Notes: generated by a model not told the origin, from the sequence alone. A stretch of 64,000 nt of DNA from a virus (IMGVR_UViG_3300025133_000025), one strand, 5' to 3'. Shown: positions 868 to 59,060, counted from the first letter of the stretch. Numbers and translations: made by a program.

Positions 868-896
868 TTTCCGCATAAAACTTGTTGTTGTATAAT
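868..896 (+). promoter_or_regulatory. phage promoter motif TTTCCG-N14-TTGTATAAT
   Basis: TTTCCG at 868-873, extended -10 TGTATAAT about 891-896, 50 nt upstream of the 947 start. Confidence 0.45.
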
Positions 897-946
897 AAAG
901 ACAGGCAGGCAATCACCTGTTTAAACGTTAACCTGGAGAGAGATCG

Positions 947-1237
947 ATGAAGGGTACTTTTGCAAGCGGCCGAGTGAATCCCAACAACCCGCCGGGATAT
1001 CGCAATTCAACGCCAACACATCCTTATGCGTTGGCACGTAAAGAGTCAGCTGCCGAACGCCAGGTTGAGCGTGATGCGCGCAGTCCTGAACAGCAGCTGG
1101 CGTTGTTGGACAAGCGACGAGGGAACAGTGCAAAGGAGCGTGCTCGGCTTGAAGCACAGATTGCTGCAGCGTTGCCGAAGGAAAAGCCAAAGAAGGAGCG
1201 GCAGCCCAAGAAGAAGCGCGGCGAGGGGAAGAAGTGA
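947..1237 (+). CDS. small basic K/R/E-rich protein (possible nucleic-acid binding)
   Basis: 96 aa, GGAGAGAGATCG-ATG RBS; C-terminal KEKPKKERQPKKKRGEGKK tail. Confidence 0.55.
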   Translation: MKGTFASGRVNPNNPPGYRNSTPTHPYALARKESAAERQVERDARSPEQQLALLDKRRGNSAKERARLEAQIAAALPKEKPKKERQPKKKRGEGKK

Positions 1238-1523
1238 ATCGCAAAACTGAAGATGAAAAGCCTGAGGTTGAGGTTGTGTTTGCGGCAGCAAATCATGATG
1301 CGCAGGTGAATGTTATCCGCGCACTCCTTCAGGACAAGCAGGAAGCAGGGGTAGAAGCTATGCTTGCAGCTGGCATGATTACAGAAGAGCAGATTCGGAT
1401 TGCCAAGCTATGAGTTGGGCGGATGCATTTTGTATCGTTGGCGCAACATGGGCGATTGTCTGGATGATTGTTCAGCTTAATCGTGATCTTTAGCTGACCG
1501 CCGAAGGTCCTGGACGCAGCAAG

Positions 1524-1562
1524 TTTCCGCATCCAAGCTGTTGTGATAAAATAGAATTACCA
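1524..1562 (+). promoter_or_regulatory. phage promoter motif TTTCCG-N14-TGTGATAAAAT
   Basis: same spacing and architecture as the other copies; precedes the 1583 gene. Confidence 0.45.
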
Positions 1563-1582
1563 ATTGAGGTAAGGGAGTTAGA

Positions 1583-1981
1583 ATGGCCAAGCGCAAGTGG
1601 AGCCCTGGAAGCCGTGTCAATCGTCAGCACTTGGGAACGATGCTGTCCCGTGGCGATGAAGATTACATTGCCTTTGTTGCAGCAATCTTCGCTGCAAAGA
1701 GTGAGGGTGATGTTGAGAAACTTGAAACGCTAATTGAGCAGGGTAAGAAGATGGAATATCTTCCCTTTGATGCCCTCGAACGTGTCACTGGAAGTGCCAC
1801 CTCTGCTGTTGAAGTTGCCCGGGCTGCAGCTGCCAACGGTGCCCGCCAGCTTGTCTTTAGCCTCTTGCAGAGCGGCCTCGATGATGCTGTTCAGTCATTG
1901 ATCGATGATGAAAGCCAGCCTTATGTGACTGAGGAATCTGTTGCAGAATGGCGAGAGCTGCTTAAGGCAGCTAGCTCGTAG
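1583..1981 (+). CDS. hypothetical protein, paralog of 8446..8871
   Basis: AAGGGAG RBS; shared N-terminal pattern RKWSPGSRVNRQHLGTMLSRGDEDYIAFV versus RKSRWSGRSATNTSHLQNMLRGGDVEYFTAV. Confidence 0.6.
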   Translation: MAKRKWSPGSRVNRQHLGTMLSRGDEDYIAFVAAIFAAKSEGDVEKLETLIEQGKKMEYLPFDALERVTGSATSAVEVARAAAANGARQLVFSLLQSGLDDAVQSLIDDESQPYVTEESVAEWRELLKAASS

Positions 1982-2050
1982 AGTAAATTGATTGCTGTGT
2001 GAAGTGTTTCATGCAACAAAACTACAGACAGAGAAGAGAGAATAAGAAGC

Positions 2051-2887
2051 ATGAGTGATTTTGATTTTGTTGACTTTAACCTCACGCCTGGTGCCACAGA
2101 TTTTCCAGAGGAATTTCTTCGCCGAGCGTTTGCTGTTGCAGTCACACCTTTTGCAGAAGAGCATAGTGGCATCGTTTTTGACGATGCCCGTAATGCTATT
2201 AATACCCTATTGATTGGACTTGTTGAGCAGAGCGGCGATGTGTTTGAGATTGGATTCAACGCCGGAATTCCGGATGTGTCTACTGCGAACATCTACGCAT
2301 TGTTTTTGCTTCACTGGAAGTGTGATGATTTTGGGTGCACTGCATGTGCTGCGCCCAGTGTGATTGCAAGCCGTGTGAAGTTCCATGGTGATTTCAATCG
2401 TGAAACTGCGATTGCTGACCTCAACGCTGCGATTTCTTTTGCATACGATGGAATGGATGATGTGCTTGACAGCACAAATCCTGCCGGCGGAGCAAACCCT
2501 GCAGGGATTCTCGGTATCCCGCCCAGTGGACCTGACTTCGGGTCCAGCAAGGACGGAATGATGTCAAGCCTGATTGACTTGGCATTGCCGGGAGCGGCGC
2601 TGTACAACGCAACTGCAGCTGCAATTGTGGCCGTGGCCGAAGAGTCTGGTAACAGTCTTGATGCTGTGATTGCAAGGATGGAAGCGGATACTGGGATTAC
2701 AGTTCCCGCGGAAGTTCACACAGCGCTGCGTGATGAAACGTATCCCGGAGGTGCAAACAGCAATATCTCTGCGGAAGAGTTCTACGGCGTGACAGAGAAG
2801 CTCTTTGGTTTGCAGCCGCCCGGAGCGCCCTCTGCAGACTTCCGACTGTCCGAGGCCCCTGACGGAACGTTCAGCTTCGAAAACTAG
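2051..2887 (+). CDS. hypothetical protein 278 aa
   Basis: long ORF, AAGAGAGAATAAGAAGC-ATG RBS, followed by strong hairpin. Confidence 0.6.
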   Translation: MSDFDFVDFNLTPGATDFPEEFLRRAFAVAVTPFAEEHSGIVFDDARNAINTLLIGLVEQSGDVFEIGFNAGIPDVSTANIYALFLLHWKCDDFGCTACAAPSVIASRVKFHGDFNRETAIADLNAAISFAYDGMDDVLDSTNPAGGANPAGILGIPPSGPDFGSSKDGMMSSLIDLALPGAALYNATAAAIVAVAEESGNSLDAVIARMEADTGITVPAEVHTALRDETYPGGANSNISAEEFYGVTEKLFGLQPPGAPSADFRLSEAPDGTFSFEN

Positions 2888-2896
2888 TTTGCTGCA

Positions 2897-2934
2897 TGTG
2901 CACAGGGTCAGTTATATAACTGACCCTGTGCACA
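2897..2934 (+). terminator. perfect 18-bp inverted repeat hairpin (TGTGCACAGGGTCAGTTATA / TATAACTGACCCTGTGCACA)
   Basis: seen directly after the 2887 stop; no T-run, so could also be a protein-binding palindrome. Confidence 0.5.
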
Positions 2935-2940
2935 ATTGGA

Positions 2941-3591
2941 ATGACTATGAAGTTTGATGCCGCCACATTTAAGTTCACAAGTAAGACTGACATCTCTTCA
3001 CTTGGTGATGAGTGGTGGGAGATGTGGGAGCGCCTTGTTGGCGCAACAGAAGTTGTTGAACGCGCCCGGGTCACTGGGAAAATTACAAGTGCCCCCGAGC
3101 TGGAAGATAGTTTGGCAAAAATTGTGAGCTTTCTGCGCATGATGATGATGGGCTGGTTGATCGCATACCTTGGTGATGCTGATCCCAGTGAGCTCCGCAA
3201 GTCGATGGCTGCCCATGATCTCCCTGTCGATGATAAGCTGTTTGAAGCCAATTACGTTATGTTTCTTTTCTTCTGGAATTGTGGAACAGACTGTGGCATT
3301 TGCATTTTGCCAAATTCAAACGAGCGTCAAAAGCTTATGGATGAATTCAATGCGCACGGATCCGCAGAGGCAATCAAGTTTGCAACAACGGTTCTGCGTG
3401 GACGAGCACTCGGTGCTATAACTGAGATGCAAGAAGAAATGGGGCTTGTTCCCGCAGGAACTGCAAAGCTTGTTACAGCCATGCAGGAAGCAATCGGCAG
3501 TAATGACATTGACAATCTGTCAGACGACGCCAGGACTGGGCTTGAATTGAGTGCACTATGGTCATCAACAGTAGAAGCAGGAGAAGCCTGA
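2941..3591 (+). CDS. hypothetical protein 216 aa
   Basis: ORF track; begins right after hairpin. Confidence 0.55.
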   Translation: MTMKFDAATFKFTSKTDISSLGDEWWEMWERLVGATEVVERARVTGKITSAPELEDSLAKIVSFLRMMMMGWLIAYLGDADPSELRKSMAAHDLPVDDKLFEANYVMFLFFWNCGTDCGICILPNSNERQKLMDEFNAHGSAEAIKFATTVLRGRALGAITEMQEEMGLVPAGTAKLVTAMQEAIGSNDIDNLSDDARTGLELSALWSSTVEAGEA

Positions 3592-3763
3592 TGCTTAGTC
3601 ATCTTTTCAATTGTCACAATGAATGGACCGGAGTGCTTGTGGCACTTGGTATGCTACCATTCATTGGACCTTGGGTGCGAATTAAGTTGTGTTCGCTGAA
3701 GGACCACTTCCAGGACCGCACGCACGGTCACGATCACACACCTCACAACCACTAGGAAAAAAC

Positions 3764-4009: not shown

Positions 4010-4055
4010 ATGCTTCTCGATCTTGGCGCAGAGCTTGTGCTCCTCAACAAGGTAG

Positions 4056-4605: not shown

Positions 4606-4634
4606 TTTCCGCGCTCGATAACATGTGGTAAAAT
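4606..4634 (+). promoter_or_regulatory. phage promoter motif TTTCCG-N14-TGGTAAAAT
   Basis: identical architecture to the 1524 copy; 25 nt upstream of the 4660 ATG. Confidence 0.45.
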
Positions 4635-4659
4635 AGAAATAGGAAATGAGGAGTTAGCA

Positions 4660-4830
4660 ATGCATCCTGCAGCAATTATCTACATCGTTCTCACGTGTCT
4701 CGGCTTGTACCGTAGCGCCATTAAGGATGGTGAATATGAGCAAATCAGTTTTGGTGTTACAGTCTTTAGTACTGTTATCATTTTGGCGCTCCTCATGTGG
4801 GGAGGATTCTTCTCTGTGGGCGGCAGGTGA
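4660..4830 (+). CDS. small membrane protein (56 aa, below ORF-track cutoff)
   Basis: strong RBS AGGAAATGAGGAG 7 nt before ATG; hydrophobic IIYIVLTCLGLY and VIILALLMWGGFF. Confidence 0.45.
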   Translation: MHPAAIIYIVLTCLGLYRSAIKDGEYEQISFGVTVFSTVIILALLMWGGFFSVGGR

Positions 4831-7412: not shown

Positions 7413-7416
7413 GCGC

Positions 7417-8139
7417 ATGATTAAAGTTCTACATGCAAGCGATTTGCATGGATACTATTGGAATAAGCTGTGGGCAACTCCTGGACAAGATTTTGATCTT
7501 GTTCTGCTAACTGGAGACATGCTTCCAAATTGGCACCGGGGACCTGCGGGTGGCAAAGAGGGTGATAAGCAGAAAGCCTGGCTTCTTGAAAAAGATAAGC
7601 CAAAGCATGCGACCCATAGGCTTGGTATGGCCATGGAAGCCTTTGGTGATGTTCCTATTGTTGTTGTTGATGGCAACCATGATTTCTTCTGCCTGGGCGA
7701 CTTTATGCTTGAGCAGGGGTATGAAAATGTGTATCCCATCAAGCGCGGAATTGTGCATGAATTGCTAGGCCATCGAATCACCGGCTTTCCCAATATCAAT
7801 TGGATTGCAGGCGAGTGGGCTCATGAAACACGAGCGCCAGAACTCGCTGAATTGTGTGAAGAATTGCTGGCGCAGCACCCAACATTGATTGCCAATCATG
7901 CGCCATTGTCTGGGTATCTTGATAATGGTTATGGTATTCGAGCCATGCCACACTTGCTCCATTATCGGCAGTCTGATTGGGTGCAGTACTATTTCCACGG
8001 CCATGTGCACGAGCATGGTGGAAAAACTACGTATGCTGAGCTAGGCGGTCTGGAAGATGTCGACACGTTTGTTGTTCAGATCTTCAACGGAGCAACAACA
8101 GTAAAGATTCATGAGATTGAAGAAGGTCCGTTCGTATGA
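7417..8139 (+). CDS. calcineurin-like metallophosphoesterase
   Basis: IKVLHASDLHG ... LTGDM ... VVVDGNHDFF motifs; start taken at internal ATG just after the upstream stop. Confidence 0.7.
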   Translation: MIKVLHASDLHGYYWNKLWATPGQDFDLVLLTGDMLPNWHRGPAGGKEGDKQKAWLLEKDKPKHATHRLGMAMEAFGDVPIVVVDGNHDFFCLGDFMLEQGYENVYPIKRGIVHELLGHRITGFPNINWIAGEWAHETRAPELAELCEELLAQHPTLIANHAPLSGYLDNGYGIRAMPHLLHYRQSDWVQYYFHGHVHEHGGKTTYAELGGLEDVDTFVVQIFNGATTVKIHEIEEGPFV

Positions 8140-8354
8140 TTAACATTGGAGACGTTTGGGTACTCAGCGATGGCTCCCGTTTTGTTGTTCAAGGATTTGA
8201 AGACAGTGGTGACGTCGTCATCGGTGTGATGTTTTCAAATTTGGGAATTACGCTTCGAGCTGAAAAGATCCTTGCTATCGAACTGAAGGACCCAGCGCTG
8301 CTTCTTATTCGCGGTGGTTGTCCTGAGCCAATGAAGGCGATTATTTCCGCATAA
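8136..8354 (+). CDS. hypothetical protein
   Basis: ORF track 72 aa, overlapping start. Confidence 0.4.
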   Translation: MINIGDVWVLSDGSRFVVQGFEDSGDVVIGVMFSNLGITLRAEKILAIELKDPALLLIRGGCPEPMKAIISA

Positions 8355-8445
8355 CATACAACGAATTATAATATAAAAGAACAGGGGTTACGGTGAATTT
8401 GTTGCCGTGAAATCCAAACTAGGCCTGACACGAAAGGAACTTCAA

Positions 8446-8871
8446 ATGTCTGGCAATAAGAGTGAGAACACGTCCGCTCCGAGTATCACCCCCACGCGCA
8501 AGTCGCGTTGGAGTGGCCGCTCGGCTACCAACACCAGTCACCTGCAGAACATGCTGCGTGGCGGAGATGTTGAGTACTTCACCGCTGTTAGCGAAGGCTT
8601 TGGTCTCGCTGCTGGCGGTGACATCGAGGCTGCTGTCTCGTCGCTCGGGGACTTCCTTCCCGAAGGCGCAATCGGCTTCATCACGGCTACCAACTCCCGT
8701 CAGTCGAAGGCGGAGGTTGCTGCCGCGGCCAGCTCGGAAGCACGATCTGACATGATTCGCAAGATGTTCTCGTCGAACGTCCTCGCGGGTGCAATTGCTG
8801 CTGGCGTGGTTACCGATGATGAGGCGAAGGCTGCCCTCGATGATGAGCAGTACGCCAGCCTGCAGGCTTAA
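8446..8871 (+). CDS. hypothetical protein, paralog of 1583..1981; somewhat GC-enriched
   Basis: GAAAGGAAC RBS; paralogy noted above; hairpin downstream. Confidence 0.6.
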   Translation: MSGNKSENTSAPSITPTRKSRWSGRSATNTSHLQNMLRGGDVEYFTAVSEGFGLAAGGDIEAAVSSLGDFLPEGAIGFITATNSRQSKAEVAAAASSEARSDMIRKMFSSNVLAGAIAAGVVTDDEAKAALDDEQYASLQA

Positions 8872-9541: not shown

Positions 9542-9985
9542 GTGATGACCAAGATTGAGTGGGAGAAGCTACTGGCTAATCCTTCGCTTCGAACTGACCC
9601 ACTTCCTGGCCCTGAGGCTGGACGAATTTGGGTTATGACTAGCCGGCCAGCGAGCCGGGAGCCGGAGCTTCTTGAATGCGCGTGGAACAATAACAACGAG
9701 CAGAATACATCATCTTGGCCACCATATTGGGGTGACAGTGCGGAGCCGATGTGGTGCGTTGATTACGCAGGCGCGGAAGGTCACAAGTGGTTTGCTGTAA
9801 ATCCTCTGGCACCAGTCATTAATGCAGATGATTGCAATAGAATTTTCTGTGAGTGGGAGTCTGGGTCGTTCATTAGTGCACGTCATCCAGATTTCCAAAG
9901 AGACTTTAACAGGCTTGTAGCTAAGTATGGGCCGCCTGACACTGTTGAATTCAGAGCGCGCAATGAGGGATGGATTCGAGAATGA
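9542..9985 (+). CDS. hypothetical protein 147 aa
   Basis: ORF track. Confidence 0.5.
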   Translation: MMTKIEWEKLLANPSLRTDPLPGPEAGRIWVMTSRPASREPELLECAWNNNNEQNTSSWPPYWGDSAEPMWCVDYAGAEGHKWFAVNPLAPVINADDCNRIFCEWESGSFISARHPDFQRDFNRLVAKYGPPDTVEFRARNEGWIRE

Positions 9986-10536
9986 TTATTTGCCCAGACA
10001 CTGAAATTGAAGAGCTGGCCGGCGGAGTTTACGACTGGACACCTGAGCGAGCTAGTGAGGCCTGGCAACGCAGTTACCAGAAGCTCGGCGCAGCACTTGT
10101 TGCTTGCGACCCCATGAACACCACATTCATTGTTATGGTTGGTTTGCCCGGGAGCGGGAAGAGCACCTTCTCCAGCTGGTATGACGCGAGCAACGCGACC
10201 TCGCCGAGATCGGCCATCATCTTTGATGCAACCAACGTCGCGCCAATGCGCCGAAGTGCTATGCTCAATGTTGCGATCGGCGCTGGGCTCAAAACAGCTG
10301 CAATCTATGTGCAGTGCAACGTGCAGGTTTCATTGGCCCGGCAAGCAGCTCGGGGCCGAAAGGCAATCAGTGGAGACGTCATCCGACGCATGGACAAGCA
10401 ACTGCGTAAGCCCACTGTTAACGAAGGCTTTGGCGCAATCATTGATGTTGTCACAGTTGAACCACACCCGCGTGACAACAGGGGATGGATTGAAATTAGC
10501 GTAAGTGATCGGTCATTCTGGTGCATTGGAGAGTAA
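9970..10536 (+). CDS. P-loop polynucleotide 5'-kinase-like protein (T4 Pnkp kinase-domain-like)
   Basis: Walker A VMVGLPGSGKSTF; sits directly before the RNA ligase gene. Confidence 0.6.
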   Translation: MDSRMIICPDTEIEELAGGVYDWTPERASEAWQRSYQKLGAALVACDPMNTTFIVMVGLPGSGKSTFSSWYDASNATSPRSAIIFDATNVAPMRRSAMLNVAIGAGLKTAAIYVQCNVQVSLARQAARGRKAISGDVIRRMDKQLRKPTVNEGFGAIIDVVTVEPHPRDNRGWIEISVSDRSFWCIGE

Positions 10537-10537: not shown

Positions 10538-11719
10538 ATGCTCAACATCGAAGACTTTCGTGCTGCAGCTGAGCAGGGCAGCATCCGGCGCACTGCAAAG
10601 AATGAATACGAGCTATTCAACTACACCAGTGAAACTGCAAATAGTCGACTGTGGAATGAAATCACGCTTGAAGCGCGAGGGGTTGTGTTCCATCGTGGCA
10701 AGATTGTTTGCCGCCCGATGCGCAAGTTCTTCAATAGTCACGAGCCTGGTGCTGACTTTGTTGACGGGCTCTACACACCAGAAGTTCTGCTCAAGAAGCT
10801 TGACGGCACGCTGATTAATTTGTGGTGTGACCTTGATGGTGTACTAAATGTATCAACTCGCGGCAGTCTCGACAACGAATACATTGACGGAGCTTGGGAG
10901 CTAATCAAGCAGAACAGGATTGATAGCGCCATCGCCGCGCACTTCCCAGTAAGCTTCGGTGGTGGAACGTTCAGCTTTGAATACACCTATCCGCAGCTGC
11001 GCTTCGGCAATTCAAGTGTTGTCCCTCATGAGAATGAACGACTGTCGCTTCTCAATATTCGCATGCGAAATGGGTGTGAATATAATGCAGCCAAGATCGA
11101 CCGCTTCGGGGCTGAATTGTACGGCGAAGATGCATTCACGCTTTCACAGAAGCGCTATAGTATTGCAACAAATGTCAGCAACCCCAGTATTCCAGAGGCT
11201 GTAGAACAAGCGCTGCTATTGCCGTATACTGACGAGGGGTGGGTCGTTAGCGCATACGACCATAAGCTGCTGCGTAACATTCGCGTAAAGATTAAGGGTG
11301 CGCAGTATATTGCAATGCATCGAGTTGTTCATGGTATGACCCCACGGTCTGTTGCTGACGCATGGTACGCCGGAGTGACTGATGAACTTCTTGATATGCT
11401 GCTTGAACCGCACAAGAACCAGTTGGCCGAAGCGTTCAAGCCGTATGATGAATTGCTAGCAACTGCAACATCAGTCACGCAGGATTGGGTAGAAAATTAT
11501 CTGGCCGACTCTGAAGAGTTTACTGGTGGGACTGGCTTCGAAAGACGTGAGTTTGTCCTGGACGCGCAGCGTGACATTCCGAATCACTGGCAGTTCGCAA
11601 TTCAGGAATACTACAGTGACTCTGATCCTGACTACAAGAAGTGGGTTGTTCGAAAGCTCAATAACGGTAAGGCACCCCGAGCGTGGGAATTGCCTGTAAC
11701 TGACGATGTGAAGGAGTAG
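10538..11719 (+). CDS. RNA ligase, Rnl1 family (copy 1)
   Basis: nucleotidyltransferase motif I KKLDGTL preceded by RKFFN, as in T4 Rnl1; GGAGAG RBS; start at internal ATG abutting the kinase stop. Confidence 0.7.
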   Translation: MLNIEDFRAAAEQGSIRRTAKNEYELFNYTSETANSRLWNEITLEARGVVFHRGKIVCRPMRKFFNSHEPGADFVDGLYTPEVLLKKLDGTLINLWCDLDGVLNVSTRGSLDNEYIDGAWELIKQNRIDSAIAAHFPVSFGGGTFSFEYTYPQLRFGNSSVVPHENERLSLLNIRMRNGCEYNAAKIDRFGAELYGEDAFTLSQKRYSIATNVSNPSIPEAVEQALLLPYTDEGWVVSAYDHKLLRNIRVKIKGAQYIAMHRVVHGMTPRSVADAWYAGVTDELLDMLLEPHKNQLAEAFKPYDELLATATSVTQDWVENYLADSEEFTGGTGFERREFVLDAQRDIPNHWQFAIQEYYSDSDPDYKKWVVRKLNNGKAPRAWELPVTDDVKE

Positions 11720-15338: not shown

Positions 15339-15599
15339 CTATTGGGTATTGGCACCTGGTACATTTGAAGCGCTTTTGAACGCCCTGGACATGCTCTCAC
15401 TCTTCCAGATGGGTAGAATGATAAGCATTTCTTCATGCACACTATTAACGAACTCAATGAAGTTGAAGCCTGCAGTTTCGATTTTCTCGCGCAGTGGTAG
15501 CAGAAAAGAATCAGAGGAAGCAATTTCAAAGCCAGCCCTAACAGCCAGCTCTGCTGTTTCTTCGACGGCATCCTGGTATGCTTGCGCAAAATTAATCAT
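15339..15599 (-). CDS. hypothetical protein
   Basis: ORF track 86 aa; promoter motif directly upstream. Confidence 0.45.
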   Translation of the reverse strand: MINFAQAYQDAVEETAELAVRAGFEIASSDSFLLPLREKIETAGFNFIEFVNSVHEEMLIILPIWKSESMSRAFKSASNVPGANTQ

Positions 15600-15613: not shown

Positions 15614-15643
15614 TATTATAACACAGAGGTCCTTACACGGAAA
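15614..15643 (-). promoter_or_regulatory. phage promoter motif (minus-strand read TTTCCG-N14-TGTTATAAT)
   Basis: plus-strand text TATTATAACA ... CGGAAA. Confidence 0.45.
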
Positions 15644-19333: not shown

Positions 19334-19355
19334 GTTCATTTCCTTTCATTCCTGT

Positions 19356-19388
19356 TTATATTGTACAATGTAGTTTCCAGCGCGGAAA
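19356..19388 (-). promoter_or_regulatory. phage promoter motif (TTTCCG-N14-TTGTACAAT)
   Basis: conserved architecture; upstream of the small ORF and tRNA-Cys. Confidence 0.4.
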
Positions 19389-23853: not shown

Positions 23854-24264
23854 TCAAATATTGGCTTCCTCAAGCTTGCTTGCGTCAAGAGAAAAAACCT
23901 CGGCCACCCTTCTCATTTCATCTCTAAATTTTGCTTGAAAATCAATTGGATCGCAGTCAGCAGCAAGATCATGAGCAATCACCAGGTGTGAAAATAGCTC
24001 TCCATACTGGCTAAACCTTGTAGCTTTCGAAACTACTGAGCTAGCACCCCAACCCTCTTCGTCAGCCACGGCAGCTTCGTAATCAGTCATGAATGCACCC
24101 ATGGCGCAAGCCTTTCCTCCACTGCGATACTTATAGCGGGGGGTCACGTCGGAAGTAATGCATGGACCCTGGCCTAGGATAAATGACGCAGCGTTGTCAA
24201 ACACCTCCTGGTTGGTAGGCGAAGCCTCCAAATCAAGGATTGGATATACAGTTATGTAAGACAT
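23854..24264 (-). CDS. hypothetical protein 136 aa
   Basis: ORF track; promoter motif upstream. Confidence 0.5.
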   Translation of the reverse strand: MSYITVYPILDLEASPTNQEVFDNAASFILGQGPCITSDVTPRYKYRSGGKACAMGAFMTDYEAAVADEEGWGASSVVSKATRFSQYGELFSHLVIAHDLAADCDPIDFQAKFRDEMRRVAEVFSLDASKLEEANI

Positions 24265-24313: not shown

Positions 24314-24343
24314 TATTATAACACGTTGGGTGTTAAACGGAAA
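24314..24343 (-). promoter_or_regulatory. phage promoter motif (TTTCCG-N14-TGTTATAAT)
   Basis: plus-strand text TATTATAACA ... AACGGAAAAAA. Confidence 0.45.
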
Positions 24344-25940: not shown

Positions 25941-26260
25941 ATTTTAATATCGCATGAAACTCCTTCACCAAGAATTGGCATGGAGCAATCAATTGCAATA
26001 ATGTCATACGCTGGATCATCATCAAGACCGTTCGGCCAAATCTTTACAGCAGAGAAGTCCTTACAGCGCATGTTGCTCCGCACTTCGTTATCAAACCACG
26101 CTGGAATTTCGCAAATTGTAATTGCGTACGCGTCATCATGAATTTCCATGACGATTTCAGAAACTACTGCTGAATCGTCATCATTACTCGGTGGAAGCGG
26201 ACATCCAGCAAGAAAAACAATGGAAGCAAGTGCCAAGCTCAGTTGAAATGCACGCTTCAT
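25901..26260 (-). CDS. lipoprotein
   Basis: MKRAFQLSLALASIVFLAGC signal peptide with lipobox; promoter motif upstream. Confidence 0.5.
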   Translation of the reverse strand: MKRAFQLSLALASIVFLAGCPLPPSNDDDSAVVSEIVMEIHDDAYAITICEIPAWFDNEVRSNMRCKDFSAVKIWPNGLDDDPAYDIIAIDCSMPILGEGVSCDIKMWNAPPLTGEEQE

Positions 26261-26295: not shown

Positions 26296-26325
26296 CTATT
26301 ATACAACTACATTTCTTTCACGGAG
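26296..26325 (-). promoter_or_regulatory. phage promoter motif (CTCCGT-N14-TGTATAAT)
   Basis: conserved architecture. Confidence 0.4.
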
Positions 26326-26344
26326 ATGCTCTCTGGCAAGCTCT

Positions 26345-36323: not shown

Positions 36324-36581
36324 CTACCGTGCTGCCTGTTCGAATTCATCAGGGTAACAACCACTGATCATGAATTCTCTTTCATCAACATTGAGAAAGT
36401 GAAATGCATCCTGCATCATGGCTCCTTCAGCATATTCTGCCCAGCCTACCATAAACTGCGCCTCGGTGCAATTGAACACCATACTTCGCTCCTCAGGACC
36501 AAAGAACGGAAAAACTGCGTTGAACTGGATGACTGGAGAATCTGGACCATTGTGATTGATATTTGCGTTCTGAGCTTGCAT
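36324..36581 (-). CDS. hypothetical protein
   Basis: ORF track 85 aa. Confidence 0.4.
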   Translation of the reverse strand: MQAQNANINHNGPDSPVIQFNAVFPFFGPEERSMVFNCTEAQFMVGWAEYAEGAMMQDAFHFLNVDEREFMISGCYPDEFEQAAR

Positions 36582-36915
36582 GGTTTTCCTGTTTAAGTAT
36601 TGAAATTACACAACATTCACTACACCTATATTGTAACCTAAAGTAACAAGCGCAGAAAATAATGAGCCCTCAGCTCACCACGGTCTCCATTTGCCGCTGT
36701 CGGGTGACCAAATATAAACGCCTGGAATATCCTGTCTCGGAAGGAGGATACTTGCAACCAGTCCCTCTTCAACAAACCAGAAGATAAGTGCTGGGCCTAT
36801 CGGCCCATGCGTTTCAAGGCATTTGAAAACAAGCTCTTCGCAATTGAACATGCAGTCTTCATGCGTTGCTGCCTGAACATGGCGCCACAATGAAAAGACA
36901 ATTGCCCTGTATGCA

Positions 36916-40104: not shown

Positions 40105-40134
40105 TATTGTAACAACAAGTTTTCTTCACGGAAT
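40105..40134 (-). promoter_or_regulatory. phage promoter motif (ATTCCG-N14-TGTTACAAT)
   Basis: conserved architecture. Confidence 0.4.
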
Positions 40135-42023: not shown

Positions 42024-42495
42024 GCTCTAAATCTTTCTTCATTCGTGTGAAATTATCCAAAAGTCGCCCCATTGCTTCCGATGTGTGTGCTTCACTCAAC
42101 TTTGCTTCATGCTCAGCCATATTTTGAAAATAGTGTGGATCGTCTAGCGTCACACCAAATGGCCTGCCATCAAGATGTTGTTTTACATGCGTAAGCTCAT
42201 GTACTAATATTCTAATATACATGAGGACATCATCTCTCTTACCTTTTCTAGCAGCTGTATAGAACTTCCCGAGCACCTCAACATTCACTTGACCGTCACG
42301 CATTATACGTGTCATTCCTCTTGTACTGCTGTTTACGAAATGCTTAACAATGTTGATTGTTAATGGCGCATCTCCAATCAGGCGCTGCACAATATGTGCA
42401 GTAAGAGCTAGCAGAAAATTATTACGCTCATGTCTGAGCTTGATGTGTCGTGAGAAGATTCTAATGCTGCGTTGCTGCTGCAGCAAGCTTCTCAC
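41989..42495 (-). CDS. HExxH zinc metallopeptidase-like protein
   Basis: LVHELTHVKQH motif. Confidence 0.5.
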   Translation of the reverse strand: MRSLLQQQRSIRIFSRHIKLRHERNNFLLALTAHIVQRLIGDAPLTINIVKHFVNSSTRGMTRIMRDGQVNVEVLGKFYTAARKGKRDDVLMYIRILVHELTHVKQHLDGRPFGVTLDDPHYFQNMAEHEAKLSEAHTSEAMGRLLDNFTRMKKDLEHEFELLDCTRK

Positions 42496-43705
42496 TCATA
42501 ATTCCCTTTCGGTGTTTAAAGTACTTTCTGGCGATCGTGCGGAAATACGATTCACCCCCCTCTGGAGAGTCAGGCTTCCAAAGACTATAAAGAGACCAAT
42601 GATCTTCACTGTTGTCAACACACTGGCGCAAATCTTCAACCATCTGCCAAGCAAGCGGCTGGATTTCACCGTCAAGGAGAGGCAGCATTCTTTCGAGGCG
42701 CCCACCCATATCGCATGACATGATGTACTTGTATGACAGTTTCGTCTGCACCATAAGATTGAGATAATCAATGAACTTAAACTTTACAAGGCGGTTGCCA
42801 AAATCAATGACGAAGCCCTCTTTGTTCTTAAACTGGCGATCTGTGATGAGATCACGAACAGCAGATTTATTCATCATGAACATCGGGGGTGTGGAAACCT
42901 TAAGTTCTCTAGCAATCCACTCCAAGCTTGCAATATCAAGCTTTTCACAATTATCGTCGTATGCTGCAAGTAAGAAAAGCTTCTTCTCATTGCCATAGTC
43001 AACATGGACCCTCGATTCAGGTGCAATTAACTCACAGATGATATTCATCACAGGCGGCATATTCAAGATTCGACGCTTTGCATTCATCGATTCAAACTGT
43101 CGCTTTGTTAGTAGTTCAAGACCAATGTCACTGTACTGCGTCTGGAGGCGGCCGCGAGTTGTGCAGCGAAGCTCACCATTGTGGACGAAGTACTCGACCA
43201 TAGCACCATCTTCCTTAGACCAAACAGGATGCAGCTCATCATCGAGCATGTCCCACTTGACCTCGGAGATTTCGTCGTAGTTAAAGAACTTTTCAAAGCC
43301 ACGAGAAACGAGCCTAACATCACCGATTGAATCATCACGATGAAGTGTCTCGCCACACGCTGCTCTTTCAGTTCTCTCATGCCTATCAAACTTAAACACC
43401 AATCCGCGGATCAGTCGCACAACCTCTGTCCAGCCACCCTCAATTGAGTGGAGAACTGCATGCGCCTGCTTGGTGTAATTCAAAAGAATGAGACTGTTCT
43501 CTTCATCGATGTCGAAGTCAAAGAGCTCATACGACTTAATTCCCCACTCATCAGGGATAGCCAGGAGGCGCCGGAACTCAGGCTCCAACTCCTTCTTCAC
43601 AAATCGCCAAGCGGCTTTCTTCTCTTCGTAGTTTGCAATCCGTGAAAGGATCATCGCAGCAATGGCTGTAATTGGACCATTGATGTTTTCAAAATCGGTT
43701 GACAT
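42461..43705 (-). CDS. RNA ligase, Rnl1 family (copy 2)
   Basis: GFEKFFN followed by motif I KEDGAMV (T4 Rnl1 KEDGSL); 414 aa. Confidence 0.65.
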   Translation of the reverse strand: MSTDFENINGPITAIAAMILSRIANYEEKKAAWRFVKKELEPEFRRLLAIPDEWGIKSYELFDFDIDEENSLILLNYTKQAHAVLHSIEGGWTEVVRLIRGLVFKFDRHERTERAACGETLHRDDSIGDVRLVSRGFEKFFNYDEISEVKWDMLDDELHPVWSKEDGAMVEYFVHNGELRCTTRGRLQTQYSDIGLELLTKRQFESMNAKRRILNMPPVMNIICELIAPESRVHVDYGNEKKLFLLAAYDDNCEKLDIASLEWIARELKVSTPPMFMMNKSAVRDLITDRQFKNKEGFVIDFGNRLVKFKFIDYLNLMVQTKLSYKYIMSCDMGGRLERMLPLLDGEIQPLAWQMVEDLRQCVDNSEDHWSLYSLWKPDSPEGGESYFRTIARKYFKHRKGIMSEKLAAAATQH

Positions 43706-43950: not shown

Positions 43951-43991
43951 CTTAATTATATTTTAATACTTTATCAACTGCGCAGAAAGCT

Positions 43992-47798: not shown

Positions 47799-48221
47799 TT
47801 ACTCACTTAATAAGTAGGCGTTAACACCTCTTTGATTCAGCAAATCTAACCCTGAAGAGTCACGATACATATTAATTGCGATGACTTCATCAATCTTTGC
47901 ATTCACGATTGCCCGGGCGCAAACAATGCACGGCGAATGTGTAACGTACATCTTGCGTGATTGTTGGTGCGTGTAGGGTAGCTTAATCAGCGCATTAATC
48001 TCAGCATGGATCGTTCCCTCGCCACCAGGCCTTTCGGAATCGACTGCATTTGCCCCACCGACTTCAAGCCCGTTATATCCCAAAGCAAGCACTGAAGAGT
48101 TATCAACAGACACAATTACAGCACCCACCTGCAAACGGAGTGAAACGCTGCGCTCAGCAATTGATAGTGCGAGCTCAGACCAGATTTGGTCCCAGGCTTT
48201 CCTACTTGGCAATAGAGGCAC
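47799..48221 (-). CDS. dCMP deaminase (ComEB/T4 cd-like)
   Basis: HAEINAL ... SPCIVCARAI zinc motifs. Confidence 0.7.
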   Translation of the reverse strand: MPLLPSRKAWDQIWSELALSIAERSVSLRLQVGAVIVSVDNSSVLALGYNGLEVGGANAVDSERPGGEGTIHAEINALIKLPYTHQQSRKMYVTHSPCIVCARAIVNAKIDEVIAINMYRDSSGLDLLNQRGVNAYLLSE

Positions 48222-48475: not shown

Positions 48476-49468
48476 CTACTTATCCTTTTTGTTTAACGTT
48501 TTCTTCTTAAATTGAGCCACAAGGAGCTCAATCATTCCCCACCAAAAAGGATGAACAAGTTCACGGAGGGAAGCCAGATCGGGCATGTCCTGCCCGTTTT
48601 CGTAAGCGGCACGAAGGCCCTTCTCAATGACCAGCATTTCGTTGATGCTTGTCTCATTCTCAGTTTCAGATTCAGGAATATCGCCGATGTATGGCCCGTC
48701 ATACTCAAACATCTCAATAACGTCAGTCTCTTCAGCAATCCGCTTAAGCATATCGTAGTGCAGTTCATACACATGCAGGCTACCACTGTTATGATAATAC
48801 CACCCTGGCTTAATTCCAAGCTTAACAGCTAGAAGTTTTTGTGCAATCATGAAGAATGGCATATCATAGCTGATTCCCCTGATCAAATCGGACGATCGCA
48901 TGTTAACAATCATGTCAAGCCGACCATCACGAATGAAGAACTGGAGCGTCATTGTGCATGGAACATCAGGGTTGCTGAAGTCTGTTGTGTGAAACTTATC
49001 CTTAATATGGATTACAGCCTGCCGTGTGTCAGTGTCTTCCTGCAGCTGCGCGGCAACCTTCTGGAACTGCGACATCACGGCCACATCACCATCTTTGTTT
49101 GTCACAAGATCGTGGTCATACCAGATATGATAACCGTACGCTGAATTTAGAAGACCATCTTCACCTGCGCACTTCTTCCAGAATGAAGAATAATATGAAA
49201 CGTCATCTACTGCTTGACTTCCTGACAGGTACCACGCAAGTTCGCCAGCCATGTACAATCTACTAAACTTGCGGGCGCAACTAGCTAGAAAAACTTCTGA
49301 CTCATCAACCCAGATTGGTTCAAAGCTATAATTGATAAGCTCCTTAATTGGTAGCCCGCGGGGAGCTGCATCCTTCCCATGAAAGCGAATATCCCTGGCA
49401 GCTTTTCGAAATGCTTTTGTCATGCCTGACAGTGCTCTTGTTACTGCAGCTGTTTTCTTTTCCATCAA
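48476..49468 (-). CDS. thymidylate-synthase-fold enzyme; candidate deoxycytidylate 5-hydroxymethyltransferase
   Basis: ThyA core PCT.TLQFF, RSSDL.RG, H.Y; Asp (GISYDMPFFM) where ThyA has the dUMP-specifying Asn (GLPFNIASYAL). Confidence 0.7.
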   Translation of the reverse strand: MMEKKTAAVTRALSGMTKAFRKAARDIRFHGKDAAPRGLPIKELINYSFEPIWVDESEVFLASCARKFSRLYMAGELAWYLSGSQAVDDVSYYSSFWKKCAGEDGLLNSAYGYHIWYDHDLVTNKDGDVAVMSQFQKVAAQLQEDTDTRQAVIHIKDKFHTTDFSNPDVPCTMTLQFFIRDGRLDMIVNMRSSDLIRGISYDMPFFMIAQKLLAVKLGIKPGWYYHNSGSLHVYELHYDMLKRIAEETDVIEMFEYDGPYIGDIPESETENETSINEMLVIEKGLRAAYENGQDMPDLASLRELVHPFWWGMIELLVAQFKKKTLNKKDK

Positions 49469-51183: not shown

Positions 51184-51214
51184 ATATTGTACCACTAGGT
51201 GACATACTCGGAAA
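51184..51214 (-). promoter_or_regulatory. phage promoter motif (TTTCCG-N14-TGGTACAAT)
   Basis: conserved architecture. Confidence 0.45.
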
Positions 51215-51676: not shown

Positions 51677-51678
51677 AA

Positions 51679-55260: not shown

Positions 55261-55261
55261 T

Positions 55262-55516: not shown

Positions 55517-55552
55517 TACTTGCTTTCTTGAAAATTTGAAATTGGTATATTT

Positions 55553-55583
55553 TATTTTACAACGCAATATGCTTTGCGGAATC
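55553..55583 (-). promoter_or_regulatory. phage promoter motif (ATTCCG-N14-TTGTAAAAT)
   Basis: conserved architecture in an AT-rich intergenic region. Confidence 0.4.
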
Positions 55584-55585
55584 TA

Positions 55586-56605
55586 TCACAGTCTAGTTGA
55601 ATTCTCTAGTCTTGTTCCACTTGAAATGCGTTGAAAAACTGCATTATCACGAAGGATTCGTAGATTAGATGCACCTGAATATGATAGGCCTGACCTCACG
55701 CCGGCTGCTAGCTCCAGCACGACATTTGCGACTGGGCCGGCGTAGGGCACTGTGGTGTTGATTCCTTCTGCAGCTATATGCGAGCTTGTTCGATTTGGAT
55801 TATCGTTGTATGCTTCCTTTGAAGCCATGCCCCGATATACTTTGAACTTACCGTCCGGTGTATCAATCACTGCCCCGGGAGTCTCGTCTGTCCCTGCTAG
55901 GAGCCCGCCAATCATGACAGCATCAGCGCCTGCTGCAAGTGCTTTCACGATATCACCTGACGTTTTGATTCCTCCGTCAGCAATTATTGACACGCGATTT
56001 TCAATTGATTCTTTAATGTTTAAGATTGCAGATAACTGAGGGAACCCATGACCTGTGACTGATCGCGTTGTGCAGACAGCACCAGGGCCTACACCAACCT
56101 TAATCACATTTGCTCCAGCGTCGTACAAGCGCCAGGCAGCTTCTGGTGTGGCAACATTTCCAGCTACGATTGTAAGTTCAGAGCGATCTTCTACAGAATC
56201 TCTAACTAATCTAATCATGGCAAGAACGTGCTGCGAATCGCCATGCGCAATATCAATCAAGAAGTGGCGAGCACCCGCAGCAATGGCATCCTTGATAAAA
56301 AGTAATTCGTTTGTACCAACGCCGATTGTGACAGGGAGACCAGCTTTTGCCCAAGCAAGCCTCTCCTCAAGTGTTGTAAAGCGATGCAGATATGCAAAGC
56401 CCCCGATGCCCTTTGCTGTCATTGCAGTAAACATTTCAATGCCTGAAATTGTATCCATGTTGGCCGCGATTATCGGCAACTCTAAACTTAGACCATTGAT
56501 GGATGTCTTCAGCGAAACTTGCCTACGTGATTGAACATTAGAAAATCGTGGCGAAAGAATTACATCATCATATGTAAATGCCTCTTGTGCAACAACAACT
56601 GCCAT
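55586..56605 (-). CDS. guaC: GMP reductase (IMPDH/GMPR family without CBS domains)
   Basis: [11 protein letters not shown] and [16 protein letters not shown] catalytic loop; 339 aa. Confidence 0.7.
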
Positions 56606-56826
56606 TATTCTTCCATGACTATTGTAAAATCGACGCCGTACGGCTCAAGACTGACATTGCTTTGATCTACACCAACCAGCTTCTTGTCAACCCCACCATT
56701 GCCGTAGTATGCTGTTAGCTCTGGGCATATTTCTTCTGCAAGCAAAAGGGCCTCATCCTCGCTATCAGCCTCAAGTGTTACTTGGACTTCTACGTTGGCA
56801 TTTCCAATTACTACGTACGTTGGCAT
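56605..56826 (-). CDS. hypothetical protein
   Basis: ORF track 73 aa. Confidence 0.4.
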   Translation of the reverse strand: MPTYVVIGNANVEVQVTLEADSEDEALLLAEEICPELTAYYGNGGVDKKLVGVDQSNVSLEPYGVDFTIVMEE

Positions 56827-56827
56827 T

Positions 56828-57430
56828 TTAACCTCGCTTTAAAGTGTAATCATACAACAACACATTGGCTGCTTGTGAAGTGTTGAGACAAACACCCATA
56901 CCAGGCATGGGAACCTCAACAATTTGCGAATTTAACAATAAGGCTGTTGGTACGCCAACAGCTTCATGCCCAACAATAATTGTCACAGGGCCAGTAGGCC
57001 ACTGGAAATTGTGTAAGCTAACAGCCCGCTCATGCAATTCAGCAGCAACAAGCGTGCGTCCAACTGACCTTATAAGAAAACTCTCTGGGTTACTGTACTG
57101 TTTAATGTCAAGATAGTCAACAGTTGAACCGCTTTTATTTTTTAGCACGTGATGCTTTGGCAAATGTCCGATAACATCAACACCCTCTGCGCCGAAGCAT
57201 GCAGCCGCCCGAATAACAAATCCAAGATTCTCATCAATACGAAAATTCACTGTTGCTATGCGTAGAGGAAAAACTTTTGCGTGTAAAAGTTTTGCGTCGA
57301 CACGCTGACGACGCGTAGGTCCGGAGCGTATGAATTTATCTTGTTGTAATTGACCCTTAGCCACAATAAATTGAGCATTTCTTACATGGGCAAACAAGAC
57401 CAATTGGTCTGTCATGCTCAAAACCATCAA
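56828..57430 (-). CDS. SPOUT (SpoU/TrmH-type) RNA 2'-O-methyltransferase
   Basis: IVGHEAVGV ... EVPMPGMGVCLNTSQAANVLLYD motifs. Confidence 0.65.
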   Translation of the reverse strand: MMVLSMTDQLVLFAHVRNAQFIVAKGQLQQDKFIRSGPTRRQRVDAKLLHAKVFPLRIATVNFRIDENLGFVIRAAACFGAEGVDVIGHLPKHHVLKNKSGSTVDYLDIKQYSNPESFLIRSVGRTLVAAELHERAVSLHNFQWPTGPVTIIVGHEAVGVPTALLLNSQIVEVPMPGMGVCLNTSQAANVLLYDYTLKRG

Positions 57431-57791
57431 GCAAACAAGGCTGCTCTGGCAATTTCTTCATGCTTTCATTAAATGAATCAAAGCTCTTATCCACCTGTGG
57501 CGAAACAAAGATATCCTTTATCAGCTCAAATGGATCGACAAAACGTTCTTGGGTGGGAACTCCCGAATGTTCAGCACGCGCGGCACCCAGAAACGCTTCG
57601 CCGATTTCTTTTGCAACTTCCCTTGACAATGTCCAAGCGCGGCTTCTATTAATCGTCTTCTCACTTAAAAAGATGTGACCATTACGAATATCAAGCTGTA
57701 AGATTGCGGTTTGTTCTGCAATGGATTCATTACCATCACCTGGTTTATAGGGAAATGTAACTTTAAAAGTTGTTAACTTTTCTGTTCCCAT
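57357..57791 (-). CDS. hypothetical protein
   Basis: ORF track 144 aa. Confidence 0.4.
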   Translation of the reverse strand: MGTEKLTTFKVTFPYKPGDGNESIAEQTAILQLDIRNGHIFLSEKTINRSRAWTLSREVAKEIGEAFLGAARAEHSGVPTQERFVDPFELIKDIFVSPQVDKSFDSFNESMKKLPEQPCLLDGFEHDRPIGLVCPCKKCSIYCG

Positions 57792-58318
57792 TAAAGTGCC
57801 TCAGAGAAAATGTCACCGCCACATGTGATTGATTGCTCAATAGCTGCACCAACAGCTTCACGAACAAAATCCTCAGGATATTGAACACCACCATCACGCT
57901 TGTACAGCAGCTTCATAGCAGTCATGGCATGCGTTCCACCGCTGCCACAAACAGCAATACCGTTCTTTCCGGGAAGCACAATCACTGTGCCCGCCCCTGA
58001 CCATGCTGCATCTTTTGTAACAAGCACAAAACCAAATCCATCAGCCTGGTCTGCCGGCATACCAAGATCAATGTTCTGTTGCTTAATCCAGTCAGCAAAC
58101 TTTGCAACATCATCTTTTGTATTCAATGGACCAGACCAATTAGAAATTTTCTTTCGCACAACTTCAAGTGTCGCAGCGAAACCTGCAATCCCAACGAGAA
58201 ATGATCCTGCATTAATCACCTTAGATCCCATGTTCAAAGGTGTGTCACCCAACGTGGCTTGTGAATCACTTGCAATTGCTGCGCCATTACTTCCTGCGAA
58301 ACCTGCAATAACTGTCAT
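57791..58318 (-). CDS. HslV-like Ntn-hydrolase peptidase
   Basis: M-TVIAGFAG ... SDSQATLG, with Thr right after the start as nucleophile; start trimmed to MTVIAG. Confidence 0.6.
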   Translation of the reverse strand: MTVIAGFAGSNGAAIASDSQATLGDTPLNMGSKVINAGSFLVGIAGFAATLEVVRKKISNWSGPLNTKDDVAKFADWIKQQNIDLGMPADQADGFGFVLVTKDAAWSGAGTVIVLPGKNGIAVCGSGGTHAMTAMKLLYKRDGGVQYPEDFVREAVGAAIEQSITCGGDIFSEAL

Positions 58319-58608
58319 TATTTTGCCCTCACTTGTTGCCATCCAGCATCTTCCATTTCACCTGTAAACGCAATGTGCGTTCGTGAAATTCGTGTGATCA
58401 CGCCCTCAGCAAGAAGACTATTGAGATGACGATAGAATGGTTGTAGCATTCCTTGATAGCCTGCGGCTGTTCGTCCAAAAAGTGTAGAAGACCATTTACT
58501 TTCTACATTTGCAATAGCATCGGCGCGCTTTGCAAGCTTACGTGTAGTTGCAACACCATTCAATTGCTCGAGTGCTGTTAGAATTGCATATTCATATTTG
58601 TTGTACAC
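58318..58608 (-). CDS. hypothetical protein (possible winged-helix)
   Basis: ORF track 96 aa. Confidence 0.4.
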   Translation of the reverse strand: MYNKYEYAILTALEQLNGVATTRKLAKRADAIANVESKWSSTLFGRTAAGYQGMLQPFYRHLNSLLAEGVITRISRTHIAFTGEMEDAGWQQVRAK

Positions 58609-59021
58609 TATTGAACCCTAACCATCGTCTCTTGGTCATAAAACCAGGGTGATACGTAATATCCGCGGTACATGATTTGCTCAAATACCTTTCCCCAACC
58701 GTCAGACCACTGGTCTGACGTTACACCAGTCAAGCGGCCAAGTTCATCTGCCGATGGGATGTGTTTTGGATCAACTGTCTCAAATACAGTTCTTATCCAT
58801 AGCAGGCCTTCTTGAATGAAAAACGAGCAGTTGCCACCCACAAACATATCAAGCTCATCATACGATGTCCAGCATAACGACAACTCTTCTTCCTCACCAA
58901 CTGCGCCAACTAATGATTGCAGCGCCGACAAAGAATAAACTGGATCTGCACCTTCGTCAGCCCAATCACCGTCTTTGTAATAGACCTTGGCTTCGCCTTC
59001 AACGAAGATTTTCATTTTCAC
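58608..59021 (-). CDS. hypothetical protein
   Basis: ORF track 137 aa; GTG start in track, ATG 6 nt later has an AGGAG RBS. Confidence 0.4.
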   Translation of the reverse strand: MKMKIFVEGEAKVYYKDGDWADEGADPVYSLSALQSLVGAVGEEEELSLCWTSYDELDMFVGGNCSFFIQEGLLWIRTVFETVDPKHIPSADELGRLTGVTSDQWSDGWGKVFEQIMYRGYYVSPWFYDQETMVRVQ

Positions 59022-59029
59022 TCCTACCT

Positions 59030-59060
59030 TTATTATACTTCTTTGAATATAACGCGGAAT
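59030..59060 (-). promoter_or_regulatory. phage promoter motif (ATTCCG-N14-AAGTATAAT)
   Basis: conserved architecture. Confidence 0.4.

Follow-up and report, generated by a model that had tools for sequence, protein, structure and literature searches.

The 64,000-nt stretch of viral DNA IMGVR_UViG_3300025133_000025 (the window) carries a family of near-identical elements, in which the hexamer TTTCCG is followed at an invariant distance of 17 nt by TAnAAT. These sites are almost certainly promoters, and they quite probably constitute a pre-replicative (early/middle) class. The reading that we favour, and to which we give an even chance, is that the box is read directly by the holoenzyme of the host primary sigma factor, in the manner of the T4 early promoters. 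The source of the window is a phage. The window belongs to a marine metagenome contig of 175,726 bp (ENA ERZ27249139 k141_178795), in which the record position equals the window position + 5,517 in the same orientation; the contig DNA examined covers window positions -5,517 to ~92,080 (~97 kb, record up to 97,600 of 175,726). The family amounts to 21 copies in ~78 kb of non-structural DNA, 17 in the window and 4 in flanking DNA.

The family is real by the counts. The form TTCCG-N17-TAnAAT, which is the equivalent of the hexamer-N14-NNNTAnAAT pattern described in an earlier note on this DNA, has 13 exact matches in the window, where dinucleotide-shuffled sequence yields 0.10 on average and never more than 1, and 14 matches in 83 kb against 0.115 expected; the stricter form that requires TGn has 6 matches in the window against 0.00 expected. 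A position weight matrix (PWM) built from the strict matches gives 14 positions at 33-48 bits, the 14th being the copy at 26298-26326 (CTCCG; 33.2 bits). The next scores belong to three TTCTGCGC variants at 43960, 36630 and 30541 (11.5, 2.5 and -7.3 bits), and all remaining scores, with all coding sequence included, are negative, lie below or near those of the TTCTG variants and are always without the downstream signature. The spacing is rigid: N17 gives 14 matches in 83 kb, while N15, N16, N18 and N19 give none, and the 17-nt spacer is present in every one of the 21 copies (within the 17 +/- 1 nt of the sigma-70 type). A possible N18 variant, TTTCCA-N18-TACAAT, is found upstream of the amidase and baseplate genes. 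When approached from the -10 side, 28 co-oriented TAnAAT words lie 10-90 nt upstream of called starts, 15 of which have the box exactly 17 nt upstream and none of which has TTGACA. The sequence TTGACA-N16-18-TAnAAT is absent from 83 kb, and a generic sigma-70 consensus scan shows no excess over shuffles (23 vs 18.6; 17 vs 21.0) and does not pick up the TTTCCG sites.

The anatomy of the element is given here by an alignment of 19 copies, and the TGn counts by all 21. The conserved block of ~45 bases extends further than the earlier note described and comprises T-TTCCG-Y-R, G-16 T-15, TAnAAT, A-6, A-4, and T-A-G-G-A-A at the likely start. Position -36 is G (8/19) or A (7/19), and is followed by T-35 (15/19), T-34 (18/19), T-33 and C-32 (both 19/19), C-31 (16/19, with T in the other 3/19), G-30 (18/19), Y at -29 and R at -28 (each 17/19). 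The box has an information content of ~10 bits and shows neither dyad nor direct-repeat symmetry. Within the spacer, weak A, A and Y are observed at -23, -21 and -20, and G-16 (14/19) and T-15 (15/19) are retained, with G at -14 in only 9/19; the remaining spacer positions show no conservation. Canonical TGn is thus present in 9 of the 21 copies (43%), G-16/T-15 being better conserved. TAnAAT (-12 to -7) is found in 21/21 copies with A-11, A-9, A-8 and T-7 invariant, which is partly a consequence of site selection. The discriminator is A-rich, with A-6 (16/19), A-4 (15/19), R at -3 and T-1 (11/19), and leads to A at +1, the seventh base after the -10 (13/19), and to G-G-A-A at +2 to +5. In the shortest leaders (copies at 15642, 28283 and 59059) the conserved AGGA(A/G) serves directly as the Shine-Dalgarno sequence, and longer leaders, for example that of the 4607 copy, have a separate GAGGAG ribosome-binding site further on. 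Upstream of the box, the A+T content at ~-60 to -38 is 52.6% versus 53.1% genome-wide, and no conserved columns are observed there.

All 21 copies are intergenic and co-oriented with the genes on both arms of the phage DNA (gene direction is rightward to ~13.0 kb and leftward from 13.2 kb onward), and 15-73 nt separate the end of the -10 from the start codon. The 17 sites of the window all lie in gaps between called genes and are oriented like the downstream gene; the box of the copy at 8344..8372 overlaps the last codons of the upstream gene (8136-8354). The in-window copies, with the one strong hairpin found among them, are as follows.

868..896, + strand: TTTCCG-N17-TATAAT, then aaagacAGG; heads a 96-aa gene at 947, with 50 nt from the -10 to the ATG.
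1524..1552, + strand: TTTCCG-N14-TGaTAAAAT; heads a 132-aa gene at 1583, 30 nt to the ATG.
4606..4634, + strand: TTTCCG-N14-TGgTAAAAT, then agaaatAGGAA; heads a 56-aa gene at 4660, 25 nt to the ATG.
8344..8372, + strand: TTTCCG-N17-TATAAT; heads a 141-aa gene at 8446; absent from the earlier note.
15615..15643, - strand: TTTCCG-N14-TGtTATAAT, then agaggtAGGAA; heads an 86-aa gene starting at 15599, 15 nt to the ATG.
19360..19388, - strand: TTTCCG-N17-TACAAT, then ataaacAGGAA; heads a 44-aa gene starting at 19339 and tRNA-Ala.
24315..24343, - strand: TTTCCG-N14-TGtTATAAT, then agtaacAGGAA; heads a 136-aa open reading frame (ORF) starting at 24264, tRNA-Thr and tRNA-His.
26298..26326, - strand: variant box TCTCCG-N17-TATAAT, then agagatAGG; heads a 119-aa gene starting at 26260.
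28256..28284, - strand: TTTCCG-N17-TATAAT, then ggtattAGGAGG; heads a 101-aa gene starting at 28238 and the downstream tRNA block.
30541..30569, - strand: variant TTTCTG-N14-TGaTAAAAT, then aaggtAGG; directly after the probable terminator of the major-vault-protein (MVP) gene.
30594..30628 (approximate), - strand: strong hairpin aatgccctgcatcc...ggatgcagggcatt just past the MVP stop, -33 kcal/mol for a 72-nt stretch.
33908..33936, - strand: TTTCCG-N17-TACAAT, then taacatACCAA; heads the unit of 85-aa, 110-aa and 880-aa MVP genes.
36630..36658, - strand: variant TTTCTG-N17-TACAAT; heads an 85-aa gene starting at 36581, then 123-aa, RlaP-like, NT5C and GIY-YIG genes.
40106..40134, - strand: ATTCCG-N14-TGtTACAAT, then aaaggtAAC; heads a basic 73-aa protein and a 539-aa AAA ATPase.
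43960..43988, - strand: variant TTTCTG-N17-TAAAAT; heads a 65-aa gene and a 414-aa Rnl1-like RNA ligase.
51186..51214, - strand: TTTCCG-N14-TGgTACAAT; heads an operon of 380-aa, kinase-like 185-aa, dCMP-hydroxymethylase-like 329-aa and dCMP-deaminase genes.
55554..55582, - strand: ATTCCG-N17-TAAAAT, then aaaatatACCAA; heads an 84-aa gene and the 1191-aa DNA polymerase III (Pol III) alpha.
59032..59060, - strand: ATTCCG-N17-TATAAT, then aaaggtAGGAG; heads 135-aa, 96-aa (weak winged helix-turn-helix), HslV-like and SpoU-methylase genes.

Left of the window, three perfect copies at -4230, -1364 and -609 precede small ORFs and an SprT-like gene; to the right, a TTCCA variant at 69746 (-) precedes a 128-aa gene and the gp32 gene.

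The earlier note had listed 13 of the in-window copies, and all 13 are recovered within 0-4 nt; it missed the copy at 8344-8372 (+) and the TTCTG variants at 30541-30569, 36630-36658 and 43960-43988 (-). Its statement that every copy has (T/A)TTCCG applies to 12 of the 13, as the copy at 26298-26326 reads TCTCCG. The fixed spacing that it described is indeed the same in every copy, whereas the extended -10 that it ascribed to all of them is complete in only 6 of the 13 listed copies and 9 of the 21 overall, and the 15-60 nt to the gene start widens to 15-73 nt. It had also held that a similar density of the motif inside coding regions would speak against the family; 0 of the 17 in-window sites fall within genes, so the family withstands this test.

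The proposal that these promoters delimit the transcription units is borne out by two units. The copy at 33908 heads the 85-aa, 110-aa and MVP genes, after which come the -33 kcal/mol hairpin, a probable terminator of the MVP unit, and a new promoter. Behind the copy at 51186 lies the operon that includes the genes for the dCMP-hydroxymethylase-like protein and dCMP deaminase. Intrinsic terminators are not enriched upstream of the promoters, a strong hairpin being found only before the copy that follows the MVP gene, and most units probably read through into the following unit. In the 15615 copy, the AGGAA would double as the ribosome-binding site because only 15 nt separate the -10 from the ATG. 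We also note that the 132-aa (1583-1981 +) and 141-aa (8446-8871 +) proteins are paralogues (31% identity over 67 aa, E=4e-6), each encoded by the first gene behind its own promoter copy.

Very few members of the lineage have been sampled. For the MVP homologue there is one relative at 73% identity (L130, a 4.1-kb contig), beyond which the matches are bacterial (Myxococcota) proteins at <=47%; Pol III alpha has one relative at 57% (L145, a 7.3-kb contig, 36% G+C), followed by a large family at <=44%. Before the gene pair ending in MVP, L130 has tTTCCG-N17-TATAAT-ataattATCAACC, and the window counterpart reads tTTCCG-N17-TACAAT-taacatACCAACC with an unrelated spacer; a G+C-rich hairpin also follows the MVP gene of L130. 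In L145, tTTCTA-N17-TATAAT precedes the small gene and Pol III, corresponding to the window copy at 55581, and TTTCTCG...gtggTATAAT with a spacing of 18-19 precedes the 381-aa orthologue, corresponding to the gtggTACAAT copy at 51213. As the two blocks are kept at orthologous positions in both relatives while the spacers differ, both blocks and their distance are under selection. TTTCY is the core still shared at 57% protein identity. The family is absent from more distant phages, namely L146 and L147 (Pol III 43%) and L129 (MVP 45%), as well as from Microcystis phage Mel-JY01, which among GenBank phages gives the best match to the RecA-like protein. Strain variants from other samples are 99.9-100% identical and are therefore uninformative on constrained positions. 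The exact promoter string is not found in IMG/VR, which also has no MVP relatives; degenerate-motif matches there are single chance hits, and two-hit loci were rejected for their unrelated flanks and lack of the downstream signature. Pol III relatives in JGI metagenomes are only ~30% identical and are without the motif. A literature search for TTTCCG with phage and promoter found no paper.

Mel-JY01 (L152, PP395634.1, record 63.1-71.5 kb) has the same RecA-exonuclease-helicase gene order as this phage. It carries an intergenic repeat of its own, aaaaaaagacTTGCATacgttgaaaagatttcgTAAATTtgta (TTGCAT-N17-TAAATT units), in at least 5 copies, which looks like a separate phage-specific promoter family.

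The suggestion in the earlier note that the motif marks one temporal class is supported by the genes behind it. The 21 copies stand before small early-type ORFs, tRNAs, and genes of nucleotide metabolism and replication, and none is present in the ~10 kb of structural genes examined (neck, sheath and baseplate; gp13, gp15, sheath and neighbours), where ~3 would be expected at the observed density. This absence lends modest support to a temporal class. The T4 late word TATAAATA is absent at the TTCCG sites and, on the coding strand, before the structural genes; its single occurrence in 83 kb is at window position 69311 (-), L144:13114-13160, directly upstream of the gp32 gene.

In the mechanism that we propose, promoters of the primary-sigma (sigma-70/sigma-A) type would drive the pre-replicative transcription units. 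Sigma region 2 would read TAnAAT, region 3 the G-16 T-15 (G-14) extended -10, and region 4 of the host primary sigma the TTTCCG at -35 to -30, beyond the invariant 17-nt spacer. TTTCCG would then be a lineage-specific -35 variant, nearest to the T4 early -35 element GTTTAC, and transcription would start at the conserved A, 7 nt past the -10 and within T-A-G-G-A-A, which in short leaders would also serve as the ribosome-binding site. The TTTCCG class would need no phage sigma, and the structural genes would use a different signal. The family itself, its placement, orientation and spacing, its conservation in relatives, its absence from the structural genes and the lack of a canonical promoter are observed directly, and from them we infer the protein that touches the box, the start and the timing.

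Several observations favour this reading. One is the geometry of the element: the box is at the -35 position with a 17-nt spacer, it keeps T-35, T-34 and C-31 of TTGACA, and its hexamer is T4-early-like, so the phage sigma, activator or modified polymerase that the earlier note had envisaged is not required by the evidence. Another is the order of expression. With no canonical promoter in 83 kb, no other candidate is left to start transcription on the DNA after injection, and small early-type ORFs close to the contig end are also headed by TTTCCG copies. A phage protein on which the family depended would have no visible promoter from which to be expressed first. The phage-encoded sigma factor for which the earlier note recommended a search is not seen in ~97 kb of the contig. 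Precomputed Pfam hits for every called gene, together with PHROG and Pfam scans of the window proteins that included lenient thresholds and concatenated small proteins, likewise give no MotA, AsiA or significant helix-turn-helix match.

Several points weigh against reading by the host sigma. TTTCCG agrees with TTGACA at only 3 of 6 positions (T-35, T-34 and C-31), as the earlier note's remark that the element is not TTGACA implied, and this is below the >=4/6 test for a sigma-70 -35 element. The bases T-33, C-32 and G-30 are as invariant as the consensus bases, which means that they are read specifically. Region 4.2 of the primary sigma and its preference for TTGACA are very widely conserved. 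UP-element-like A+T enrichment is not found upstream, unlike in T4 early promoters. An excellent -10, TGn in about half of the copies and a phage-specific box make up the pattern of T4 middle promoters. In addition, a phage sigma or adaptor may lie in the other ~78 kb of the contig. Finally, the box holds three C:G pairs, so recognition may depart from the rules for unmodified DNA.

The last point follows from the nucleotide metabolism of the phage. The thymidylate-synthase-fold protein at 48476-49465 (-) has its best matches among CMP and dCMP hydroxymethylases and has Asp at the position of ThyA Asn177, the uracil-specifying Asn. Near its gene are those of dCMP deaminase and a nucleotide pyrophosphohydrolase-like protein (47799-48221; 59060-59557). 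This gene set, judged from homology, suggests that the phage DNA is cytosine-modified and probably carries 5-hydroxymethylcytosine or a derivative.

A serious, though less likely, alternative keeps the same promoters and has the box read by a phage-specified factor, which would make the class of the 'middle' type. The factor could be a member of the sigma-70 family with host-like -10 recognition and its own region 4, an adaptor pair that remodels region 4 of the host sigma so that a DNA-binding domain of phage origin sits on the box (as in sigma appropriation by T4 AsiA/MotA), or a factor delivered with the virion. The invariant non-consensus T-33, C-32 and G-30 in a box of ~10 bits are what such a reader would explain, and an excellent -10 combined with TGn in 9/21 copies reproduces exactly the pattern of T4 middle promoters (PMC2988021). 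Behind the copies stand genes of replication and nucleotide metabolism, and tRNA genes. The box also drifts with the lineage, from TTTCCG to TTTCTA/TTTCTC in the 57% relative, and is absent at 43-45%. Against this reading stand the lack of a sigma, MotA or AsiA match in ~97 kb, the lack of another promoter type that could express the factor first while the copies themselves head early-type ORFs at the contig end, and the placement of the box 17 nt from the -10, in the region 4 position, where a MotA box would be at 12 +/- 1 nt (PMC2988021). One weak lead is the 96-aa protein at 58318-58608 (-), with a below-threshold HTH_24 match (E=0.0097); its structure model is unusable (AlphaFold, pLDDT 45). 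This protein is the only DNA-binding candidate seen, and it has one full-length homologue, at 53% identity, among 1.8 billion representatives. More speculatively, and on our estimate unlikely, TTTCCG would be the target of an unrecognised phage protein (a MotA/AsiA analogue or the region 4 of a phage sigma), possibly in a manner dependent on modified cytosine, so that the promoter would be on only on phage DNA. Were a phage protein the reader, sigma appropriation would have been invented twice, independently, the second time in a lineage with no relation to T4.

It is improbable, in our judgement, that the -10 and extended -10 suffice and that TTTCCG is an operator overlapping the -35 region for a phage or host regulator, such as a repressor of early transcription. 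Extended -10 promoters can lack a -35 element (general knowledge; the TGn/-10 class in PMC2988021), the box is more invariant than mere -35 contact would need, and conservation reaches Y-29 and R-28. Canonical TGn, on the other hand, is present in only 9/21 copies, so most of them would have too few contacts without a -35 element. The 17-nt distance, which polymerase contact demands, never varies and is more than an operator needs; the box lacks the dyad or direct-repeat symmetry of an operator, and no DNA-binding regulator was found in the Pfam/PHROG scans. That the repeats are not promoters at all, and represent a recombination or packaging site, the end of a mobile element or an RNA-level motif with a chance TATAAT-like word, is very improbable, as nothing specific speaks in its favour and it is opposed by the intergenic, co-oriented placement of 21/21 copies on both arms at 15-73 nt from start codons, by 17-nt spacers without common sequence between the blocks, by relatives that keep both blocks at orthologous sites and lose the spacer, and by an Rfam scan that finds only tRNAs in the window.

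The genome around the promoters is that of a large phage with few sequenced relatives. Marine assemblies in ENA, JGI and Logan hold near-identical copies of the window, whereas GenBank phages have no near-identical DNA and their best protein matches are only 27-37% identical. The window encodes DNA polymerase III alpha, a class II ribonucleotide reductase, two Rnl1-type RNA ligases and the MVP homologue; just outside it are gp32, a RecA/UvsX-like protein, a DnaB-type helicase, a T4-type baseplate protein, gp13, gp15 and the tail sheath. The MVP homologue (880 aa; MVP shoulder, Vault repeats, SPFH) is encoded at window 30645-33287 (-), and its relatives comprise one marine contig at 73%, Myxococcota at ~47% and the huge phages LR756500/1/3 at 37-39%; L129, a different phage-like contig of ~177 kb, also has an MVP homologue. 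ARAGORN reports 15 tRNA genes and Rfam adds a 16th (26764-26833 (-), 45 bits), which ARAGORN does not report. The tRNA cluster has as neighbours Rnl1-type RNA ligases at 10538-11719 (+) and 42461-43705 (-) and a polynucleotide-kinase-like P-loop protein at 9982-10536 (+); together these resemble a T4-type set for tRNA repair. Between the baseplate and replication genes (L144:2179-11968, window ~70.4-80.2 kb, -) are four large ORFans of 773, 550, 711 and 655 aa without significant Pfam or PHROG match, interrupted by a 411-aa DNA polymerase A fragment; a search for the 655-aa ORFan among 5.8 billion proteins found only itself. Two independent assemblies (175,726 and 170,388 bp) share their first base, L148:1 being record position 1, 5,517 nt left of the window, which suggests that the genome physically ends there or that a terminal repeat has its boundary there.

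Phage-specific families of early promoters are familiar; what is unusual here is the rigidity and the undescribed -35 hexamer. The family yields a nearly complete map of transcription, with 17 units in the window and 21 in all, for half of the ~176-kb genome of this uncultured marine phage, which has almost no sequenced relatives, and the motif is usable as a handle for finding members of the lineage in metagenomes. The short, invariant box at a fixed distance makes its recognition directly testable. If the host sigma reads it, the family is a data point on how far a functional -35 element can drift; if a phage factor is needed, it is a new case of sigma redirection. The box may also bear on a preference for T-33 in phages with modified cytosine, T4 and this phage.

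Compared with the canonical promoter TTGACA-N17-TATAAT, the family has the same -10 hexamer, the optimal 17-nt spacer, the same position of the upstream hexamer and a likely start 7 nt past the -10. It differs in 3 of the 6 -35 positions, and these mismatches are invariant; no TTGACA-N16-18-TAnAAT copy accompanies it in 83 kb. The T4 late promoters, read with gp55, have TATAAATA at -10 and no -35 element, a feature that is not found at the TTCCG sites.

In T4 middle promoters the MotA box is located 12 +/- 1 bp from a stringent -10, with TGn (PMC2988021). The present family is similar in its stringent host-type -10, in TGn in about half of the copies, in a phage-specific box that replaces TTGACA, and in driving replication, nucleotide-metabolism and tRNA genes (PMC2988021). 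In contrast, the MotA box is (a/t)3TGCTTtA, while T-TTCCG-Y-R has no TGCTT; the distance from box to -10 is 17 nt (15 if Y-R is counted) rather than 12 +/- 1; and neither a motA/asiA homologue in the 97 kb examined nor a separate early class that could supply such factors is seen. The family thus belongs neither to the canonical sigma-70 type, since it departs from the -35 consensus, nor to the MotA type, since both the sequence of the box and its distance are different.

T4 early promoters carry GTTTAC at -36 to -31, and the sequence 5' of their -12 is GT-rich (PMC1524935). They are read by the unmodified host polymerase without any phage factor and have an A+T-rich UP element (PMC2988021). 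The family differs from them in C-32 and G-30, which are invariant here and are A and A/T in T4, and also in the absence of an A+T-rich UP element, in TGn in 43% of copies and in a spacer that never varies. The phages themselves differ, as this one has Pol III alpha, shows no sequence-level kinship with T4 and no near match to a GenBank phage, and has no alt gene in view. The hexamer itself is closest to the T4 early -35 element. Aligned with GTTTAC, the (G/A)TTTCC of this phage is the same at -35, -34, -33 and -31, is usually compatible at -36 and differs at -32 (C in 19/19 versus A), and both have T at -33 instead of the consensus G. In each case GT-rich sequence lies 5' of -12, TAnAAT is perfect, and conservation continues beyond the -10 as far as the start. 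Modified cytosine is probable in both phages, and in both, many near-identical, information-rich copies stand before small ORFs, tRNA and pre-replicative genes.

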